Shown: positions 56,818 to 64,000 of the stretch, piece by piece
Numbering within the stretch: the stretch's first letter is position 1
How the letters are laid out: each line of letters starts with the position of its first letter
Origin: an uncultured delta proteobacterium
GTDB taxonomy: Bacteria > Desulfobacterota > Binatia > UBA9968
DNA: 64,000 bases
Assembly: GCA_963847445.1 (NCBI GenBank)
Contig: CAWJZV010000034.1
Coordinates: 160,001-224,000 of the forward strand
Reading direction: 5' to 3'
The notes under the pieces: model-generated
Seen by the model: only the letters and a program-made list of their open reading frames with translations
Database searches by the model: none
Told to the model about the DNA's origin: nothing
Made by a program: the position numbers and the translations under genes

Positions 56818-57001
56818 GCAGCCATACTGGCAAAGAAGTCATGAACGGACAAGCGCAAGGGGCAGCCGGCGATGATCCCTATAGGATCGCTCCCATGCCT
56901 TGAACCTGATGGGTGACAGGTGCGGAGGTCCAGTGGACCGCTTTTAGGTTTTTTTTCTCGCAAGGTCTTCACTTCCGCTTTTCCAGCGCTATGCTGAAAT
57001 C

Positions 57002-57140
57002 AGAAGTTGGCGACTCGATCGAGATACTCTGCTTCTTGGCATTGCCTCCCTAAGCAGAGCAGTGGGTGCGATTACAGCTTACGTGCTACTGCAACCTACC
57101 GCCGACTCAGGCGCCCTGTCACCCCGGGGCGCCTTTTTTA
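57002..57140 (+). ncRNA. Candidate ~135-nt small RNA
   Basis: TTCACT-16-TATGCT promoter, closing stem 57005-12/57100-07, internal 8-bp stem, terminator. Confidence 0.5.
57109..57140 (+). terminator. Rho-independent terminator
   Basis: aggcgccc-tgtcaccccg-gggcgcct followed by a T-tract. Confidence 0.8.
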
Positions 57141-57170
57141 TTTCACGCTCGGGTTCCGCTTATATTTTGG

Positions 57171-57345
57171 CAAAGGGGATGTCAAAGGAACGTTGTTGAC
57201 TGGCTGGACAAACTCTTTTCACTATCTTCATCTTCGACAACATCCCTTAATTCTGCGCAGACTCCCACTGCTCAGCAGCATGTGCGCGTGATTGTCCATC
57301 AACGCCCAGACGTAAAACCGGCGTCCCCGTATTGTTGCCACGACG
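57171..57345 (-). mobile_element. Remnant of RAYT-like Y1 (HUH) transposase, copy 1
   Basis: Minus-strand TGTPV/YVWALMDNHAHMLLSSG (HUH motif) joined to an end motif gtccagccagtcaacaacgttcctttgac shared with copy 2. Confidence 0.75.
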
Positions 57346-57552
57346 GCAGGCAAATTATTTTCTCACTATCAAAGTGACATCACGGATTTACTCAATGGAG
57401 TTGATATCTACAAATAAACATTACTTTATGGATGAGGGGGGGCTGGGATCAGTGGCGAGATGTACAACCAGTTTGGTAGGCATTCATGTCACTGACCTAC
57501 GCTGAATGCTCCTAATAAACTTCTTAGGCAAAAAATCGGAGAAGCGAATGTG

Positions 57553-58082
57553 CTAGGACTGACGGTCTGACACCAAACTGGATTCGATCGCGAATCCTGG
57601 ACGCATCTCGTATCGGATGAAGTAGTTATTGAAGCTGGTGTGCAACTCGAAATAAATCCGACCGTATTGGATGCGCTCGGATCTATTTGGCATGACGAGA
57701 TATTCAATCCGACGCTGATCCGCACCCGCCTCGATTAATTGATTAACCGCCTGTTGGAACACACCGCGCTTTGCGTTGTGTGCCGCTTCATAGAAATCTT
57801 TTAGGAAACTATCTTTTATAGCGGTCACCTGCTGCGCGGTTATCCAGAAATCTTGCACGTCGACCTTAATCTATTATTGAGATCGCAGGGAATTCCAAGA
57901 CAAATTGATGCCATTGCAATTTCGCGAAGCGTCGTGAGCCTTTCTTGGAAAAAAGTTGATCAAGAAACAGCTCTGAAATAACAAAGGGGGGAAAATAATT
58001 GTCAGTGTACACGATCAGGTCGAAGAGGGCACTGGTTTTTTTCGGTTTCGTGTACCTGGCTAAAGCCGAGTGCAGCTTTCAT
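57553..58082 (-). CDS. Hypothetical low-GC protein, probably frameshifted
   Basis: 101-aa ORF 57553-57858 plus upstream open segments to an ATG at 58082; no motif recognised. Confidence 0.4.
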
Positions 58083-58279
58083 TGAGAACTAAGCGCAGTC
58101 TACGATACGCCTGAGTTCTCCTATTCTAGTCCGAGCTTTTTTCCTTGCGCGCTTGGGAACGCTATCGGCAACACAAACTAGCGTAAGCGCTGCTAACCGA
58201 TTAAGATACGCAGAACAATCTCCAATGCCTTCTCTCCGACAGATGCCGCGAAAGATCGATCGAGCGAGGAAATACCGCC

Positions 58280-58562
58280 ATGCGTATGAAGAACCCGCCC
58301 CATCCTGGGCGCATTGTTCGCCAAGAGTGTATCGAGCCTCTGGGACTGACCGTAACTGAAGCCGCCAAGCGTCTCGGAGTAATCGCGGCAGACCTTGAAC
58401 AATCTGGTCAACGGCAAGGGCTGTGTCTCGGCCGAGATGGCGGTGCGCCTTTCTAAAGCCTTTGGATCAAGCCCCGAGGTGTGGCTCGGCATGCAGATGG
58501 AATACGACCTCGCGCGAGTCGAGAAGGAAGTGGGCAACATCAAGGTTAAACGAGTTGCATGA
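58280..58562 (+). CDS. higA: HigA-family antitoxin (one frameshift ~58381)
   Basis: [75 protein letters not shown]; absent from the ORF track. Confidence 0.9.
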
Positions 58563-58722
58563 GCGCGGAGCGGTGCTCCTAGCCGGGTCCGAAATCGGGT
58601 GGCGGGAATAACCTTAGACGGCACAGGAGATCAGCACAGATGTCGTCACGGGGTGGGGGTTGACTTCTCCGGCGATGACTTATTCCTTGACCTGTAAATG
58701 GTGAAGCGAGCTGTCTTACAAA

Positions 58723-59370
58723 ATGAAAAAACTAACTCTTGCACCGGAACAAGTCCTGGCCACGGATACTTCGTTTCCAGAAGACGATCTGGCGTTTCAG
58801 ATTTACTATCGGGTGTTTGCCAAAGGCGGTGGCGTATCATTGCCGCCCATTATCGTCGGCTCGATTAAATCACCGAGCGACTGGATTGCTCGGCTGGAGA
58901 GTGGATATTCGCACCGCGAGCATAGGGACCCGGATCTAGTTCGACAGCGGCGTCGAGAATATAGGATTTTGTTTGCGAAATTGCGGGAGATTCCGTATTA
59001 CATCCTCGATGGCAATCACCGGGCCTTAGCGTCAGCTTTAAGTCGACAGCCGCTCAATGCTCTTTACCTAGAGTCCGATGCAGACCTGCTGGAAGTCGAG
59101 CGAATGGTTTCAACCGGGGATCTGCTATCTTTCCCGCATGAAGCTGGGAGTGTGGAAGAGTTAGAAGGGCAATCGATTCAACACTTTCTGAAACTCAATG
59201 ATCTTCCGCCCAATCACGCTCTCAATGCTTCAAATAAGATCGATCTCACTCCTTTGGTGTCCGTCGCGACTCGTGCATACGATTTATGTTCGAGCAACAG
59301 ATTACCGCGCTACATGGTTAAGAACTACACGGCGCGGAAGGAAGGCCGTCCAAGGATACTGCCGAGTTAA
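58723..59370 (+). CDS. Hypothetical protein with ParB/Srx-like motif
   Basis: LPPIIV ... YYILDGNHRALA resembles the ParB N-terminal DG-H-R box. Confidence 0.6.
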   Translation: MKKLTLAPEQVLATDTSFPEDDLAFQIYYRVFAKGGGVSLPPIIVGSIKSPSDWIARLESGYSHREHRDPDLVRQRRREYRILFAKLREIPYYILDGNHRALASALSRQPLNALYLESDADLLEVERMVSTGDLLSFPHEAGSVEELEGQSIQHFLKLNDLPPNHALNASNKIDLTPLVSVATRAYDLCSSNRLPRYMVKNYTARKEGRPRILPS

Positions 59371-59414
59371 CCCACTCTGAGCCGATAGCGCGAGCAACAT
59401 TTGGCGGCGTGAAG

Positions 59415-59709
59415 GTCAAAGGGGACGTTGTCAACTAGCTGGACAAACTTCTTTTCAATATCTTGGACAACTTCGCTTAATGTGGGTCAACGCCCAGGCG
59501 TAAACCGGTGTCCCGGTTTCTCCGGTCAATCGCCCGAGCTGCCGCATGATCTCGTCGATCCTGTTGGTCAGCGAAGTTTCGCCGCCGCCCGATCCCGCGG
59601 ACCGTTGTGCAATGTCCCGGGACTATCCAGTCGTGCTTGCCTCGGCATAGATTGTAACTTTTGTTTTCCGAATTTCTCCACGTTCGAGTTCGTCCAGCTA
59701 GTCAATAAT
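59415..59709 (-). mobile_element. Internally deleted RAYT-like transposase element with imperfect terminal inverted motifs, copy 2
   Basis: ATG 59648: MPRQARLDSPGTLH / VRGIGRRRNFADQQDR / LGRLTGETGTPVYAWAL, then C-terminal LSKILKRSLSS-stop; ends gttgtcaactagctggac and gtccagctagtcaataat. Confidence 0.82.
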
Positions 59710-59739
59710 TTCCACTTTGTGACAACGATTCAGGCGTTG

Positions 59740-61929
59740 CTAAATTAAGCCGGGTCTAAAAATTGCCGATGGCCTTCGATCATGGCGGCAAACTGTGCTT
59801 GCTCCGTTTACTGAAATGGTTGCGGGAAATTTAGCGCTGCTGCGGCGCCAGCGCGCTAGCCACTTGTGGTCGAGCAGTGGCGGCGCCAACGGATGCTGGG
59901 CGGCGCTTTCAGCTCGGTTGAACGCGATCGTGGTCTCGCTCTTCGGGCCGGTGCCGACCCCTTGGGCGACCCAGAAGCCGGCGCTCAGCAATGCCACGCG
60001 CACGGCGGTGGCTGCGGAGTAAGTATAGAGTTCAGCCGGTTTGGCCAGGCAGCGGGCAAATATTCTCGCGAAGATTTCCCCGGTCCACAGTGCAGCGTCG
60101 GTTTTAAATGAGAAAGGATCGTAAAAAATCAGGTCGGGGATCGCTGCGGTTTCGATTAAGTCACGAAAGTCTCCTTGGAGAAGTTGCCAATGCAGCATTT
60201 CCGATGGGTGTTGCCAGCTCCCCTGGGAGAGAATCTTCGACGGCGCGCTGTGGTGCAGGTGCGGGAAGTAGCCGGAATGTTTGGCGGCGAGGGTGAGCGC
60301 ATCGAGATCCTGCTCAAAACTGAGCAGACGCAGGGGGCGCAGGCCGGCGCGGTTATTTCCCCCGTGGCAGCGCTCGAAGCAGTGAATCGCCGCCATGGCA
60401 TTGCTGGCGGCGCCCAGGCCGACATCCCAGATGACCAATTCGTCGGAGTTGCCGTGACTTGTTTTTGACCACGCTGATTCCAGCGTGGAACCACTAAATG
60501 GGGTTTCCAAAGGGGGTTGAACATCCCCTTTGCGATATTTAATTAGCGCCGGGGTCAATACCCCGGCCGCGAAGTGACTTCGTTTATTGACTAAGCGCGC
60601 GGCGAGAGCCGACTGCTCGATGTAAAGCTGGTTGGCTTCTTCGCTCGGCGCGCTCACCGAGTGCATGATTTCGCCGGAGCTGATTTGACGAATGCTGTAA
60701 AAACCATGAACCGAGCGGTGCAGCTCATAATCGCCCAGGCGGGCCGGCTGGACGACTTTGGTTTTCTTCGGCGGCCGGATCGGATTGTCTTCATCGGCGC
60801 GCATCAGCTCGGCGCGTTTCTCGCGGTAGTACGCGGCAAAGTTGCCGGCTAAAATTCGCTCGCGCATTTCCTTCATCAGGCGATGGTAGAACGCCAGGTT
60901 GTGCATGCCCAAGAGATGCCAGCCGAGCGCTTCAGCCGATTTGATCAGGTGGTGCAGGTAGGCGCGCGAGTAATCTCGGCAGCATTGGCAATCGCAAAGG
61001 GCGTCGACAGGGTCGTCGGCGAGTTTATGAACCGTGCGGCGCAACTGCAGTTTGCCGTGGGAGGTAAAGGCGACGCCGCGTTGCGCCAGTTGGGTCGGGA
61101 TAATGCAGTCGAACATGTCGACGCCGCGATGCACCGCCTCGAGAAGATCGCTGGGCGTGCCCACGCCCATGAGATAGCGCGGCAGCTGCGCCGGCAGCTG
61201 CTCGGTGACCAGCGCGGTGAGATCGTAACGCTCGGCGTGAGTTTCGCCGACCGCGAGACCGCCGATGGCGAAACCGTCGAAGGGCAGTTCGCGCAGGAAT
61301 GCGGCGCTGATTTTTCGCAGCTGCGCATGACAGGCGCCCTGAACGATAGCGAAGAGTGCGGCCGGGGCATCGCCGCGCGCCTGCAGCGAACGTTGCGCCC
61401 AACGATGGGTCAGCTCCATGGCTGCCTGCGCTTGAGGATACGCCGCGGTGGCGGGGATGCATTGATCGAGCACCATCATGATATCGCTGCCGATGGCTTG
61501 CTGCATTTCAATGCTCGACTCTGGCGACAGCAAGTAGCTCTTGCCATCGACGTAGCTTTTGAAGTTTGCGCCGGCTTCATTCATGGCTCGCGAATGGGGC
61601 AGCGAGAAAATCTGAAAGCCGCCGGAGTCCGTCAGCACCGGGCCAGGCCAATTCATGAAGCGGTGAATGCCGCCGAATTTCTTGAAGACTGCGGCGCCGG
61701 GACGAAGCAGGAGATGATAGGTATTCGCCAATAACAAGCGCGCGCCGGTTGCTTGCAAACTTTCCACGGTCTGCGCTTTGACCGTCGCCTGGGTGCCCAC
61801 CGGCATGAAGATCGGCGTTTCGACGGCGCCGTGCAGCGTTTGAAAGGTTGCCGCGCGGGCCCGGGAGCCAGGCGAACCGGCTTCCAGAGTGAACTGCAAT
61901 CGGGGGTTGTCGCGCGGTGAATTTACCAT
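59740..61929 (-). CDS. tgt: tRNA-guanine transglycosylase fused to a MnmC-like SAM methyltransferase domain
   Basis: TPIFMPVGT, LANTYHL, DSGGFQ, LDQC, GGLAVGE, RYLMGVG, DMFDC, CDCQC..HN; then GEIMHS, WDVGLGAASN, SFE, GDF, FYDPFS, TYS, GPKSETT. Confidence 0.93.
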   Translation of the reverse strand: MVNSPRDNPRLQFTLEAGSPGSRARAATFQTLHGAVETPIFMPVGTQATVKAQTVESLQATGARLLLANTYHLLLRPGAAVFKKFGGIHRFMNWPGPVLTDSGGFQIFSLPHSRAMNEAGANFKSYVDGKSYLLSPESSIEMQQAIGSDIMMVLDQCIPATAAYPQAQAAMELTHRWAQRSLQARGDAPAALFAIVQGACHAQLRKISAAFLRELPFDGFAIGGLAVGETHAERYDLTALVTEQLPAQLPRYLMGVGTPSDLLEAVHRGVDMFDCIIPTQLAQRGVAFTSHGKLQLRRTVHKLADDPVDALCDCQCCRDYSRAYLHHLIKSAEALGWHLLGMHNLAFYHRLMKEMRERILAGNFAAYYREKRAELMRADEDNPIRPPKKTKVVQPARLGDYELHRSVHGFYSIRQISSGEIMHSVSAPSEEANQLYIEQSALAARLVNKRSHFAAGVLTPALIKYRKGDVQPPLETPFSGSTLESAWSKTSHGNSDELVIWDVGLGAASNAMAAIHCFERCHGGNNRAGLRPLRLLSFEQDLDALTLAAKHSGYFPHLHHSAPSKILSQGSWQHPSEMLHWQLLQGDFRDLIETAAIPDLIFYDPFSFKTDAALWTGEIFARIFARCLAKPAELYTYSAATAVRVALLSAGFWVAQGVGTGPKSETTIAFNRAESAAQHPLAPPLLDHKWLARWRRSSAKFPATISVNGASTVCRHDRRPSAIFRPGLI
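60454..60580. mobile_element. In-frame 120-bp palindromic insertion flanked by GTGACTT direct repeats
   Basis: gtgactt at 60454-60 and 60574-80; three 8-bp hairpins at 60469-88, 60508-32 and 60548-67. Confidence 0.7.
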
Positions 61930-61932
61930 GGG

Positions 61933-62120
61933 TCGGATTATCTCTCGCAAAGGCGCCAAGGCGCGAAGTTGACGGGCGGATGCCCGTCATCCGGAGCGAA
62001 CGCGAGGGATCTAAGAGAGATTTCTCCCTTCGGTCGCAATGACATCCCTTCCGACCTTGGCGTCTTTGCGCCTTGGCGAGAGGAACATCCGAATCTCGAT
62101 CCTGTCTGAAAATTCGCGCA
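61933..62120. repeat. Composite palindromic element, copy B
   Basis: ctcgcaaaggcgccaaggcgcgaag...gtcatccggagcgaacgcgagggatct...agatttctcccttcggtcgcaatgac...cttggcgtctttgcgccttggcgag. Confidence 0.8.
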
Positions 62121-62224
62121 TATCGCATCGTATCACTGGTTGGCGCACTGGCGCGAGGGGCGTTCTTGTGTCGGCCACGGCGCCTAAGGTATAAATTTTA
62201 CTCGATTGAAGGAGAATGCTTGCC

Positions 62225-63482
62225 ATGGCAAACGCGGAAATCGTCGCGATCGGTTCGGAATTGCTGCTCGGTCAGATCGTCGATACCAATTCGGCCTGGA
62301 TGGCCCAGCGGCTCACTGCGCTGGGGGTGAATTTATATTTCAAATCGGTGGTCGGGCGATAATCCTGAGCGCATGAAGGAAGTGATCGCGCGGGCGGTGG
62401 AGCGCGCCGACATCGTTATCACCAGCGGCGGCATCGGGCCGACCCAGGACGATTTGACTCGCGACATCGTCGCCGAAGTCACCGGTCGCAAACTGGTTCA
62501 AGACGCCGGCATGCTGGAGCAGGTCGAAGGCCACTTTCGCCGGCGCGGCCGGCCGATGACGCCCAACAATCTGCGCCAATCCTATATGCCGGAGGGAGCG
62601 ATCCCGGTGAAAAACCCCAACGGCACGGCACCGTCCTTTGTCGTCGAAGATCCGCGCGCCGTGGTTTTCTCGTTGCCCGGCGTGCCGGTGGAGATGAAAT
62701 GGTTGTTCGAAAACGAAGTCGAGCCCTATCTCAGAAAGAAGTTCAATCTCGCCGAGGTGATTCACTACCGCGTGCTCAAGATCGTCGGCATCGGCGAGAG
62801 CGCGGTGGACGATAAGGTCGGCCACTTGATCGCCAACTCAAGCAATCCAACCGTCGGCGTGCTGGCGTTACCCGGCCAAGTCGACGTGCGCATCGCCGCC
62901 AAGGCGGCCAATCGCGCCGAGGCGATGAAGATGATCGCACCGGTGGAAGCCGAGGTGCGCGAGCTGTTGGGCACGGCGATCTTCGCCGCCGACGAAGAAA
63001 CCATGGAGGTTGTCACCGGCCAATTGCTGCGCGAAAAAAACCACACCGTGGCGGCGTGCGAGGATCTCACCTGCGGTCAATTGGCGGAGCGCCTGCAGAC
63101 CGCCGGCAATGAGAACTTCGGCGCCGGCTTTATTTGCAATAACGAAAATGCCCTGCGCTCATTACTGAAAAACGCGCGCAGCGGCATAAATCTCGACGCG
63201 ACTTTAAAAGATCCAACCGCGCTTACCGACGAAATGGCTTGGGCGGCGCGCCAACAGTCCGGCTGCGATTTCGGCTTGGCGCTGCACGCCATCGCCGATC
63301 CCGACAGCAAGATTCAAAATCTCGCGCGCGGGCAGACCTATGTTTCGCTTACCGACGGCAAGACTTTTCTCAGGCGTGAAAGCACCAGCGCCGGCCGCGG
63401 CGCCTACGACCGCTCGCGCATGACGCTCAGCGCCATCGATTTGCTCAGAACGGCGTTGTTGGAAGGGATGAATCAGAAATAG
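62225..63482 (+). CDS. cinA: CinA-family protein (frameshift ~62355); C-terminal PncC domain degenerate
   Basis: [46 protein letters not shown]. Confidence 0.9.
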
Positions 63483-63486
63483 TTGC

Positions 63487-63684
63487 GTGCGCAAATTTTC
63501 TTAGCCCCGAACATCTCGGAGTCGGGTATTCCTCGCGCCAAGGACGCCAAGGTCGCAATGTTCGGAATCGTTGTCATTTCGACCCTTGGGAGGAATCTAT
63601 CTTCGATCCCTCGTGCTCCCTCGGGGTGACGGGCATAGGCCGTCACCTTTGCGAGCTTTGCGTCTTTGCGGGAGATAATTCCGA
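63487..63684. repeat. Composite palindromic element, copy C (inverted relative to B)
   Basis: cgccaaggacgccaagg...gtcatttcgacccttgggaggaatct...gatccctcg...ctcggggtgacgggca...ctttgcgtctttgcgggagataattccga. Confidence 0.8.
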
Positions 63685-63741
63685 GTTTTCGGTTTTCGGC
63701 TGTGTCGCTCTCGGTCCTTGGTGGTGAAAAACTCTTGTCCA

Positions 63742-64000
63742 CTAGTTTTGCATAGTCAGTTTCGGTAACAGCGCTTGCAGTCGGCTGAGTGGCTCTTCCA
63801 AGCTCTGGATCGCTTCGCTCCAGAATTCAGTTTTCTCGATATCTCTGCCGACGGTTTGTCGCACGACATTCTCCGCCGTGTCGCTGCCGGCGCGGCGCAG
63901 GAATTCTTCGTATTTAGGCAGAAAACATCGCCTTCGTTTTTGAACATGGCGTAGAGGCCGCGGCTGAGCAGATAGCCGAAGGTGTAGGGGAAATTGTAGA
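63742..64000 (-). CDS. Oligoendopeptidase F (M3B) C-terminal part, one frameshift
   Basis: YNFPYTFGYLLSRGLY.../LPKYEEFLRRAGSDTAE...EFWSEAI...MQN-stop. Confidence 0.85.
   Translation of the reverse strand, partial: LQFPLHLRLSAQPRPLRHVQKRRRCFLPKYEEFLRRAGSDTAENVVRQTVGRDIEKTEFWSEAIQSLEEPLSRLQALLPKLTMQN

Follow-up and report, generated by a model that had tools for sequence, protein, structure and literature searches.

The fused gene and its reading frame

The DNA stretch analysed here (the window) comprises 64,000 nucleotides from an uncultured delta proteobacterium of the Binatia (assembly GCA_963847445.1, contig CAWJZV010000034.1, positions 160,001 to 224,000) and carries a gene in which a tRNA-guanine transglycosylase (Tgt) is joined to a methyltransferase of the MnmC type. 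The gene occupies a single open frame on the minus strand, 59740..61959, which encodes 739 amino acids (aa) from a TTG; starting from the ATG at 61929 yields a protein of 729 aa, and its N-terminus, MVNSPRDN, is the same in relatives. Pfam places a TGT domain (PF01702) at residues 23-373 (E 1.2e-141, 472 bits) and a Methyltransf_30 domain (PF05430) at residues 557-669 (E 7e-16, 58.7 bits against a cut-off of 22), and finds these two domains alone. Among the NCBIfam models, Q_tRNA_tgt (TIGR00430) matched with 436.4 bits, above its equivalog cut-off of 306.75, and tRNA_MNMC2 (NF033855) matched with 66.9 bits for the whole protein and 69.7 bits for the domain, below its cut-off of 136. An earlier note on this DNA had described a complete bacterial Tgt running in-frame into an MnmC-type methyltransferase. 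The Pfam and NCBIfam matches confirm that description, and the translation holds every motif the note named (DSGGFQ, LDQC, GGLAVGE, DMFDC, DVGLGAASN, GDF, YDPFS, TYS and GPK). Throughout, we use Tgt2 for the fused or linked Tgt half and MT-T for the methyltransferase half (Table 1).

Past the residues KFPATIS, the window protein diverges from all relatives, and its last ~23 residues are a frameshift product. Because the conserved C-terminus of the relatives, which ends in ..EQAQFAAMIEGHRQFLDPA before the stop, is encoded here in another frame, we place a one-base indel close to the 3' end of the gene.

Table 1. Features of the fusion gene, in window coordinates
Feature	Position	Strand	Basis or remark
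Whole fusion gene	59740..61929	-	729 aa from ATG; likely true stop 59745-59747
Tgt2 domain, residues 23-373	60811..61863	-	Pfam, TIGR00430, Z. mobilis Tgt chains (364 bits), whole-genome search
Asp101, equivalent to Z. mobilis Asp102 (DSGGFQ)	61627..61629	-	Alignment to 1enu/1ozm; invariant in 20 fusions
Asp274, equivalent to Z. mobilis Asp280 (DMFDC)	61108..61110	-	Alignment
QLAQRG Tgt2 signature, replacing canonical R(N/V)(A/G)RNG	61075..61092	-	46 fused vs 20 canonical sequences
Basic linker between the domains, ..DNPxRPPKKxK..	60739..60810	-	Alignment of fusions
Predicted MnmC2-fold S-adenosylmethionine (SAM)-dependent N-methyltransferase domain (MT-T), including N-terminal beta module and C-terminal WLxRWxRS extension	59830..60738	-	
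Insert of ~45 aa between N-terminal module and motif I	60454..60591	-	Only in window and closest relatives; modelled as disordered
Motif I, DVGLGAASN (GxGxGxxxN SAM loop)	60400..60426	-	Alignment; MnmC2 motif in the available part of PMC3527978
Motif IV, DPFS (DxF)	60109..60120	-	Aligned to Aquifex D193-A-F and E. coli D178-G-F
Frameshift zone, conserved C-terminus in other frame	59745..59812	-	One-base indel near 59807-59812

Recurrence of the fusion in independent assemblies

The assembly that contains the window is prone to indels, and apparent pseudogenes in it are not to be trusted without reads. Its mnmG (contig C7, 218219-220066) has four in-frame stops, its queC (contig C45, 150724-151371) has two TGA codons, and its canonical tgt (contig C14, 24338-25380) is spread over three frames. 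We considered the last of these as a pseudogene and dropped the idea; because mnmG, queC and the 3' end of the fusion are disrupted as well, the breaks in canonical tgt are probably indel errors.

With the C-terminal 330 residues as the query, a word-based search of proteins scored 8000 candidates, 2054 of them at E <= 0.001. Both PF05430 and PF01702 were present in all 120 of the matches listed, and the source annotation of these fusion proteins, where they were named, was Tgt or queuine tRNA-ribosyltransferase only. We also surveyed loci with the methyltransferase domain alone as the query against contigs from one genome per species, and obtained 53 loci, 50 of them with a full-length match. 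A Tgt domain lay directly upstream in 47 of these 50 loci, all from other assemblies, and the contig end cut off the remaining three. Both domains shared one uninterrupted frame in 44 of the 47, while one was cut by the contig start and two were broken by stops or a frameshift. The 44 same-frame loci, together with 57 loci found by motif (see below), rule out the fusion as an assembly artefact. The earlier note had allowed for such an artefact, with homologs always encoded separately; instead, the two parts occur fused or side by side in dozens of separate assemblies, some of them complete genomes from cultured strains.

According to record titles, the carriers are metagenome-assembled genomes (MAGs) of 'delta proteobacterium'/Binatia, Nitrospirota and Acidobacteriota, Verrucomicrobia including a cultured Horticoccus, Bdellovibrionota, and several species of Leptospira, one of which is represented by a complete genome. 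A second search added Myxococcota, including the complete genomes of Anaeromyxobacter oryzae and Corallococcus. Four MAG records (L023, L162, L247 and L262) contain a fusion or stand-alone MT-T of the Verrucomicrobia or Binatia type under the names Klebsiella pneumoniae, Klebsiella sp., Akkermansia muciniphila and Polynucleobacter, and are probably mislabelled bins.

Tgt2 keeps the preQ1-type active site and forms a separate clade

Aligned to the Tgt of Zymomonas mobilis, Tgt2 keeps D102, D156, C158, Q203, G229-G230-L231-A232-V233, E235, M260, D280 and C318/C320/C323/H349. We take these residues to act in catalysis, in the pocket for 7-aminomethyl-7-deazaguanine (preQ1) and in zinc binding, and we take Asp274 of the window protein to be the catalytic nucleophile. 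The matched positions are invariant in 20 fusions, the zinc ligands correspond to C312, C314, C317 and H343 of the window protein, and the pocket motifs LDQC, VQG, GGLAVGE and LMGVG are kept. Thus the Cys, the Val and the base-pocket residues are all retained, as expected from the earlier assignment of this Tgt to the preQ1 type. The Cys equivalent to E. coli Cys145 favours preQ1 over queuine, according to the available part of PMC3074131.

The helix that follows the nucleophile reads PTR(N/V)(A/G)RNG in canonical Tgt and P(S/T)(Q/E/A)LAQRG in the fused clade. In Z. mobilis numbering, Arg286 is absent from all 46 fused sequences compared and Arg289 is replaced by Gln in 45 of them, whereas both arginines are present in 20/20 canonical sequences. 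Position 290 is Arg in 40/46 fused sequences, V282 is changed to Ile or Thr in 45/46, and Asp267, which we assume to be linked to the U33 pocket, is kept in 46/46. The two lost arginines presumably hold the tRNA backbone. On their role, the literature that we searched offered nothing beyond the location of Arg286, which lines a cavity connecting the ribose-34 and phosphate-35 pockets (PMC5395182).

We built quick maximum-likelihood trees for both halves of the protein; the Tgt tree was midpoint-rooted and its support values are those of the Shimodaira-Hasegawa-like approximate likelihood ratio test (SH-aLRT) only. Among 87 Tgt sequences, the 56 linked to a methyltransferase formed one clade (SH-aLRT 100, stem 0.61) that included unfused copies from Myxococcota, and the 31 canonical Tgt fell outside it. 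The identity between fused Tgt and the canonical Tgt from their own genomes was 43-50%, and the mean over all pairs was 45%. Between phyla, Tgt2 sequences other than those of Myxococcota shared 65-71% identity, against 44-53% for the canonical Tgt of the same phyla, which suggests transfer and a special role.

MT-T is a distant relative of MnmC2

The best phmmer matches of MT-T in the PDB were Aquifex MnmC2 (3vyw, E 3.6e-5) and E. coli YfcK/MnmC. An AlphaFold2 model of the domain from a 60-row alignment reached a predicted local distance difference test score (pLDDT) of 87.9 and a predicted template modelling score (pTM) of 0.87, with the lineage-specific insert poorly modelled (pLDDT < 50 at domain residues 60-86). 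When this model was compared with the PDB by Foldseek, the nine best matches were all MnmC2 or MnmC structures, with E-values between 1.8e-13 and 3e-10, ahead of any other family (2e-7 at best). As judged from the model, MT-T has the MnmC2 fold. In MnmC2, the DxF motif supplies an indispensable Asp, and the aminomethyl side chain is believed to enter a narrow pocket there, as stated in the part of PMC3527978 that was available.

In a tree of 83 methyltransferase sequences, a single clade (SH-aLRT 96, stem 2.0) took in the 73 rows of fused, linked and stand-alone relatives, at a long distance from the MnmC of Leptospira. The fused domains from outside Myxococcota made up one subclade (SH-aLRT 99), and the Myxococcota-linked domains were joined, at weak support (90), by stand-alone proteins from Bdellovibrionales and Verrucomicrobia. 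The stand-alone relatives are annotated as MnmC or queuine tRNA-ribosyltransferase, or are unnamed.

The full-length protein was modelled poorly from a 20-row alignment (pLDDT 58.3, pTM 0.50), and the relative orientation of the two active sites is not readable from the model. A complex prediction for the unfused Tgt2 and MT-T of Corallococcus, made from 39-row alignments, gave a score of 0.00 and a mark of 0.32 and counts neither way.

The two halves are linked across phyla

Myxococcota show the pair in three arrangements. It is fused in Anaeromyxobacter, Myxococcus dinghuensis and several MAGs, and encoded by adjacent separate genes in Hyalangium, Pyxidicoccus, Archangium gephyra and a Polyangiaceae MAG. 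The third arrangement is found in Corallococcus, where the two genes are ~12 kb apart (in C. coralloides on contig C1 at 3892541-3893599 and 3905744-3906034, with three more genomes alike). We rejected the long open frames upstream of the Corallococcus methyltransferase gene as candidate Tgt genes, as they are chance frames in high-G+C DNA. A second, canonical tgt was present elsewhere in every Myxococcota case.

For the reverse test, we searched with a DNA pattern for the Tgt2 motif FDC..P...AQ(R/Q/H)G and classified 80 of the 119 matching stretches. Three were not Tgt. Of the 77 that were, 62 were followed immediately by MT-T, which continued the frame of the Tgt in 57, nine left no room to judge and six lacked MT-T, so that MT-T followed in 62/68 of the Tgt2-motif loci with room to judge. 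The six loci without MT-T were two canonical-like Tgt from Bacillota (42-43% identity), three from Myxococcota and one from Oligoflexia with only 1068 nt of room.

MT-T also has stand-alone relatives. Eight Bdellovibrionales genomes with a single tgt each encode two divergent stand-alone PF05430 paralogs. One is of the MT-T type, ~285 aa long with the WLxRWxRS tail, and the other, at 239-262 aa, is shorter and MnmD-like and has a DGSPTL..MHS..GA-like motif (read in 7/8 genomes). Five of the shorter paralogs scored 74-94 bits to the MnmC2 model, and all eight of the Bdellovibrionales proteins scored (five shorter, three MT-T) fell under the MnmC2 equivalog cut-off.

Carriers retain the queuosine pathway

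We examined gene content in 26 genomes, the source genome of the window and 25 other carriers, and counted tgt genes over the latter. All 25 had two tgt, one fused and one stand-alone; the stand-alone copy was complete in 23 (370-417 aa, apart from a single frame of 582 aa), and contig ends truncated it in two. On contig C14 of the source genome, queA precedes canonical tgt. Over the 26 genomes, queA was found in 25 and mnmG in all. A queG scored above cut-off in 23 and was split in one, giving 24/26; no queG above cut-off was found in the source genome and one other of the 26, and no queH was found in the source genome, which is 91.8% complete. Both queF and queC were present in 5/5 representative carriers, indicating that preQ1 is available in carriers.

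From these gene inventories, the queuosine pathway appears intact beside the fusion, and the fusion is thus unlikely to replace QueA/QueG. This contradicts the suggestion in the earlier note of an alternative to the QueA/QueG route, if alternative is taken to mean replacement, given canonical tgt in 25/25 carriers (two partial), queA in 25/26 genomes and queG in 24/26. The same survey of fusions against queA, queG/H, a second tgt and the mnm genes strengthens the other idea put forward there, that the two halves act as a unit, through the paralogy of both halves, the separate clade of the Tgt half and the linkage of the two across phyla.

Other methyltransferases of the MnmC2 type were unevenly distributed among carriers. 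All seven Leptospiraceae carriers also encode a canonical MnmC/MnmC2 (122-132 bits), and four Bdellovibrionota carriers hold further stand-alone PF05430 genes. The fusion was the sole PF05430 match in 13/26 carriers, and two more had only a marginal second match; such marginal second matches (21-27 bits) were seen in these 2/26 carriers and in seven other genomes. The nm5s2U methyltransferase MnmM (PF06962) was found in 0/29 genomes searched, and a control search detected the B. subtilis and L. lactis copies.

Patchy distribution and genomic context

Among 201 genomes of the same phylum as the window, only the source genome matched the fusion at E <= 1e-20. Among 81 genomes of the same class, ten were carriers, the source genome included (8/70 high-quality genomes), with frames of 683-770 aa; one of the two other genomes of the genus carries the fusion. 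PF05430 was detected in 13/81 of the class sample, namely the ten carriers and three marginal matches at 22-24 bits. The non-carriers of the class have no MnmC, and there was thus no MnmC for the fusion to displace. Because its occurrence is patchy and its conservation high, the gene seems to be accessory, under strong constraint and spread by horizontal transfer.

In two related Leptospira, genes for tRNA-Lys(UUU) and tRNA-Glu(UUC) lie ~4.3 kb upstream of the fusion (L061:418-585 and L042:422-588); the pair is not upstream in two other Leptospira species. These tRNAs carry 5-methyl-2-thiouridine derivatives (xm5s2U). Their position may be a coincidence, or a hint that the two halves have independent activities. 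When 11 loci were searched with Rfam, these two tRNA genes in each of two loci were the only matches at gathering score.

Just downstream of the 3' end of the fusion, positions 57000-59500 of the window have a G+C content of 0.45-0.52 against ~0.60 around them. Two open reading frames (ORFs) in this segment, 58723-59370 (plus strand, 215 aa) and 57553-57858 (minus strand, 101 aa), had no Pfam match, and the segment may be a small foreign insert. On the other side of the fusion, positions 62373-63482 (plus strand) encode a CinA-like protein with MoCF_biosynth, CinA_KH and CinA domains. Its MoCF match begins at profile position 47, and the N-terminus may be cut by another indel.

A possible route to N-methyl-preQ1 in RNA

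We tentatively favour a bifunctional enzyme of a distinct, widespread and unnamed family, in which Tgt2 inserts preQ1 and MT-T N-methylates it. Tgt2, with its exchange site and preQ1 pocket intact, would exchange an RNA guanine for preQ1, with G34 in the anticodon loop of a tRNA as the likeliest site. The MnmC2-fold domain would then use SAM to methylate the free aminomethyl nitrogen of the inserted base, giving 7-(methylaminomethyl)-7-deazaguanosine (N-methyl-preQ1) by the same chemistry that MnmC2 performs on 5-aminomethyluridine (nm5U). The reverse order is also conceivable, with the free base methylated first and inserted afterwards. Such a system would run beside the normal Tgt/QueA/QueG route, the genes of which coexist with the fusion. 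We observe the architecture, the paralogy, the linkage, the retention of catalytic residues and the patchiness directly, and infer the product and the target. Because an intact extra Tgt forms its own clade and is tied to an aminomethyl N-methyltransferase, sequential action on one nucleotide is the simplest account of these observations.

Two published findings are relevant here. As far as the available text of PMC13416341 goes, E. coli Tgt is highly promiscuous and has been used for attaching modifications to RNA. The base N-methyl-preQ1 exists in phage DNA, where, according to the accessible part of PMC10516641, it is made by an unrelated enzyme. Searches of the literature outside subscription journals and supplements returned no report of a Tgt-MnmC fusion and none of N-methyl-preQ1 in RNA. 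The component families are known; for their pairing, and for the Tgt2 clade with its signature, the same searches yielded no earlier description.

Several observations weigh against the proposed sequence of insertion and methylation. Unless Tgt2 has targets of its own, it would face competition for tRNAs with G34 from the canonical Tgt of the cell. Across 51 loci no neighbouring gene was conserved, the next most shared ORF cluster occurring in 7/51, and no riboswitch or other Rfam element was found in positions 57000-64000 of the window at E <= 0.1. Stand-alone MT-T occurs in 12 genomes with a single tgt (eight Bdellovibrionales and four Verrucomicrobia) and interleaves with the Tgt2-linked forms in the methyltransferase tree, which indicates that MT-T can work without Tgt2. 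Carriers among the Binatia-like lineages, Verrucomicrobia and Myxococcota have no clear gene of the MnmC2 or MnmM kind other than MT-T. If those organisms make 5-methylaminomethyluridine (mnm5U), MT-T is thus the only candidate found for its methylase.

The last two observations lead to the strongest competing explanation, which we consider possible but rather unlikely: two uncoupled wobble activities. MT-T would be an MnmD-type methyltransferase for 5-aminomethyl-(2-thio)uridine at position 34 (nm5(s2)U34) in the tRNAs for Lys, Glu and Gln, and Tgt2 a second preQ1-inserting Tgt for GUN tRNAs. The two might be fused for co-expression, or on account of shared U33-N34-U35 anticodon loops. Tgt recognises U33-G34-U35. 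On the methyltransferase side, the accessible text of PMC9976899 reports that MnmM recognises U33-nm5s2U34-U35. This explanation accounts well for the presence in MT-T of all the MnmC2 motifs and the predicted fold, for its standing as the only clear PF05430 gene in 13/26 carriers (plus two with marginal matches) and in Myxococcota, for the combination of MnmM in 0/29 genomes with mnmG in 26/26, and for stand-alone MT-T in single-tgt genomes. The tRNA-Lys and tRNA-Glu genes near two Leptospira loci would also fit, but may well be there by coincidence. It leaves unexplained, however, why the Tgt is always an extra copy that evolves separately with an altered R286/R289 motif, and why the two parts are linked across phyla. 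A second MnmC2-type activity would also be redundant in Leptospiraceae, with canonical MnmC in 7/7, and the Bdellovibrionales that have stand-alone MT-T hold a second, shorter MnmD-like paralog. Nor does MT-T fill a lineage-wide need, because the non-carriers of the window's own class have no MnmC at all. The earlier note had kept independent wobble modifications as its fallback. The extra Tgt paralog and the linkage weaken that option, while the finding that MT-T is the only clear MnmC2-like gene in several lineages keeps it in play.

Coupled action on another substrate, or towards another product, seems improbable to us. The target could be another tRNA position, rRNA or mRNA, and the chemistry could involve preQ0 or another 7-deazaguanine, or a different amine. 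The loss of R286/R289 with the gain of an Arg at 290 would suit a changed target, as would the patchy, accessory distribution and the higher cross-phylum identity of Tgt2 (65-71% against 44-53% for canonical Tgt). Yet the base pocket is that of a preQ1-type Tgt, Asp267, with its presumed link to the U33 pocket, is retained in 46/46 fused sequences, and the pocket motifs of the methyltransferase are those of an aminomethyl N-methyltransferase.

Still less probable is a DNA-modifying pair that would place preQ1 in DNA and methylate it there to mdPreQ1, for epigenetic or anti-restriction purposes. The patchy, transfer-like distribution would suit such a role, and mdPreQ1 is a natural DNA base, as the available part of PMC10516641 has it. 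Against this, Tgt2 reaches the tRNA Tgt equivalog level (436 bits) and has the zinc site, DpdM, the known dPreQ1 methylase, belongs to the metal-binding DUF3109 proteins and not to the class I methyltransferases (PMC10516641, same part), the 51 loci have no conserved partner genes alongside, and MnmC2 relatives act on tRNA (PMC3527978, in the part available). We give hardly any credence to Tgt2 as a non-exchanging RNA-binding module that presents the anticodon loop to the methyltransferase, which the fusion itself and the changed arginines (by our assumption backbone-binding) might suggest, because catalytic residues, base pocket and zinc site would not be expected to stay invariant across phyla in a mere binding module.

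Returning to insertion of preQ1 followed by its N-methylation, we think it a plausible, if less than probable, outcome that bacteria from at least six phyla (by record titles) carry a two-part enzyme that writes an unreported modification, N-methyl-preQ1, on targets of its own. The system would then be a second, queuosine-independent and horizontally mobile branch of 7-deazaguanine RNA modification. It could serve to tune decoding or, more speculatively, to shield anticodon loops from nucleases that read Q/G34. To our knowledge, queuosine biosynthesis is regarded as well mapped, with one Tgt per bacterium, and a second line of Tgt that is conserved and physically joined with an aminomethyl N-methyltransferase stands out against this background. 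If the proposal is right, the natural RNA nucleosides gain a new member and the pathway a further branch point at preQ1-tRNA, and the gene becomes an example of two wobble-modification families recombined. If the two activities are instead independent, the missing mnm5U methylase of several phyla has been found, and an intact second Tgt is still to be explained. The gene is present in cultured strains with complete genomes, such as Anaeromyxobacter oryzae Red232, Corallococcus coralloides, Myxococcus dinghuensis and Horticoccus sp., which makes these ideas directly testable.

Comparison with known systems

Like the bacterial Tgt of Z. mobilis and E. coli, Tgt2 gives a full-length match to the family and has the catalytic Asp pair, a preQ1 pocket with Cys and Val, and the zinc site. 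It differs from them in forming a separate clade at ~45% identity, in always being a second copy and in the loss of Arg286/Arg289. The canonical copy adjoins queA in the source genome and in five carriers, whereas Tgt2 does not, and Tgt2 carries or accompanies a methyltransferase. By orthology, then, Tgt2 does not appear to be the Tgt of the queuosine pathway in these genomes.

MT-T resembles MnmC2/MnmD (the N-terminal domain of E. coli MnmC and the Aquifex DUF752 protein) in its predicted fold, N-terminal beta module, motif I, DxF motif IV, TYS..R and G.G.K. It is, however, only 17-23% identical to them in structure alignments, is set apart from Leptospira MnmC as a clade of its own on a long stem, and stays below the equivalog cut-off. 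It also has the C-terminal WLxRWxRS extension, and its partner is Tgt2 instead of the FAD oxidase domain. MnmM (YtqB), an nm5s2U methyltransferase that reads U33-N34-U35 (PMC9976899, in the part available), would do the same job as MT-T if the two activities were uncoupled; it belongs to an unrelated family, PF06962, with 0/29 genomes positive.

The DpdA/DpdM systems of phages pair a transglycosylase with a methylase that follows it and, as far as the available text of PMC10516641 shows, make the same base that we propose here, N-methyl-preQ1. In those systems the target is DNA and DpdM is a DUF3109 metal protein of a different fold (PMC10516641, same text), whereas the fusion consists of TGT and PF05430 alone, with no neighbours conserved in the 51 loci, and does not group with systems of the Dpd type. 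The closest parallel in design is bifunctional MnmC, in which an oxidase and a methyltransferase, two wobble enzymes, are fused and the methyltransferase finishes the work of its partner. In the fusion described here the partner is a transglycosylase paralog, and the two halves would likewise act one after the other.

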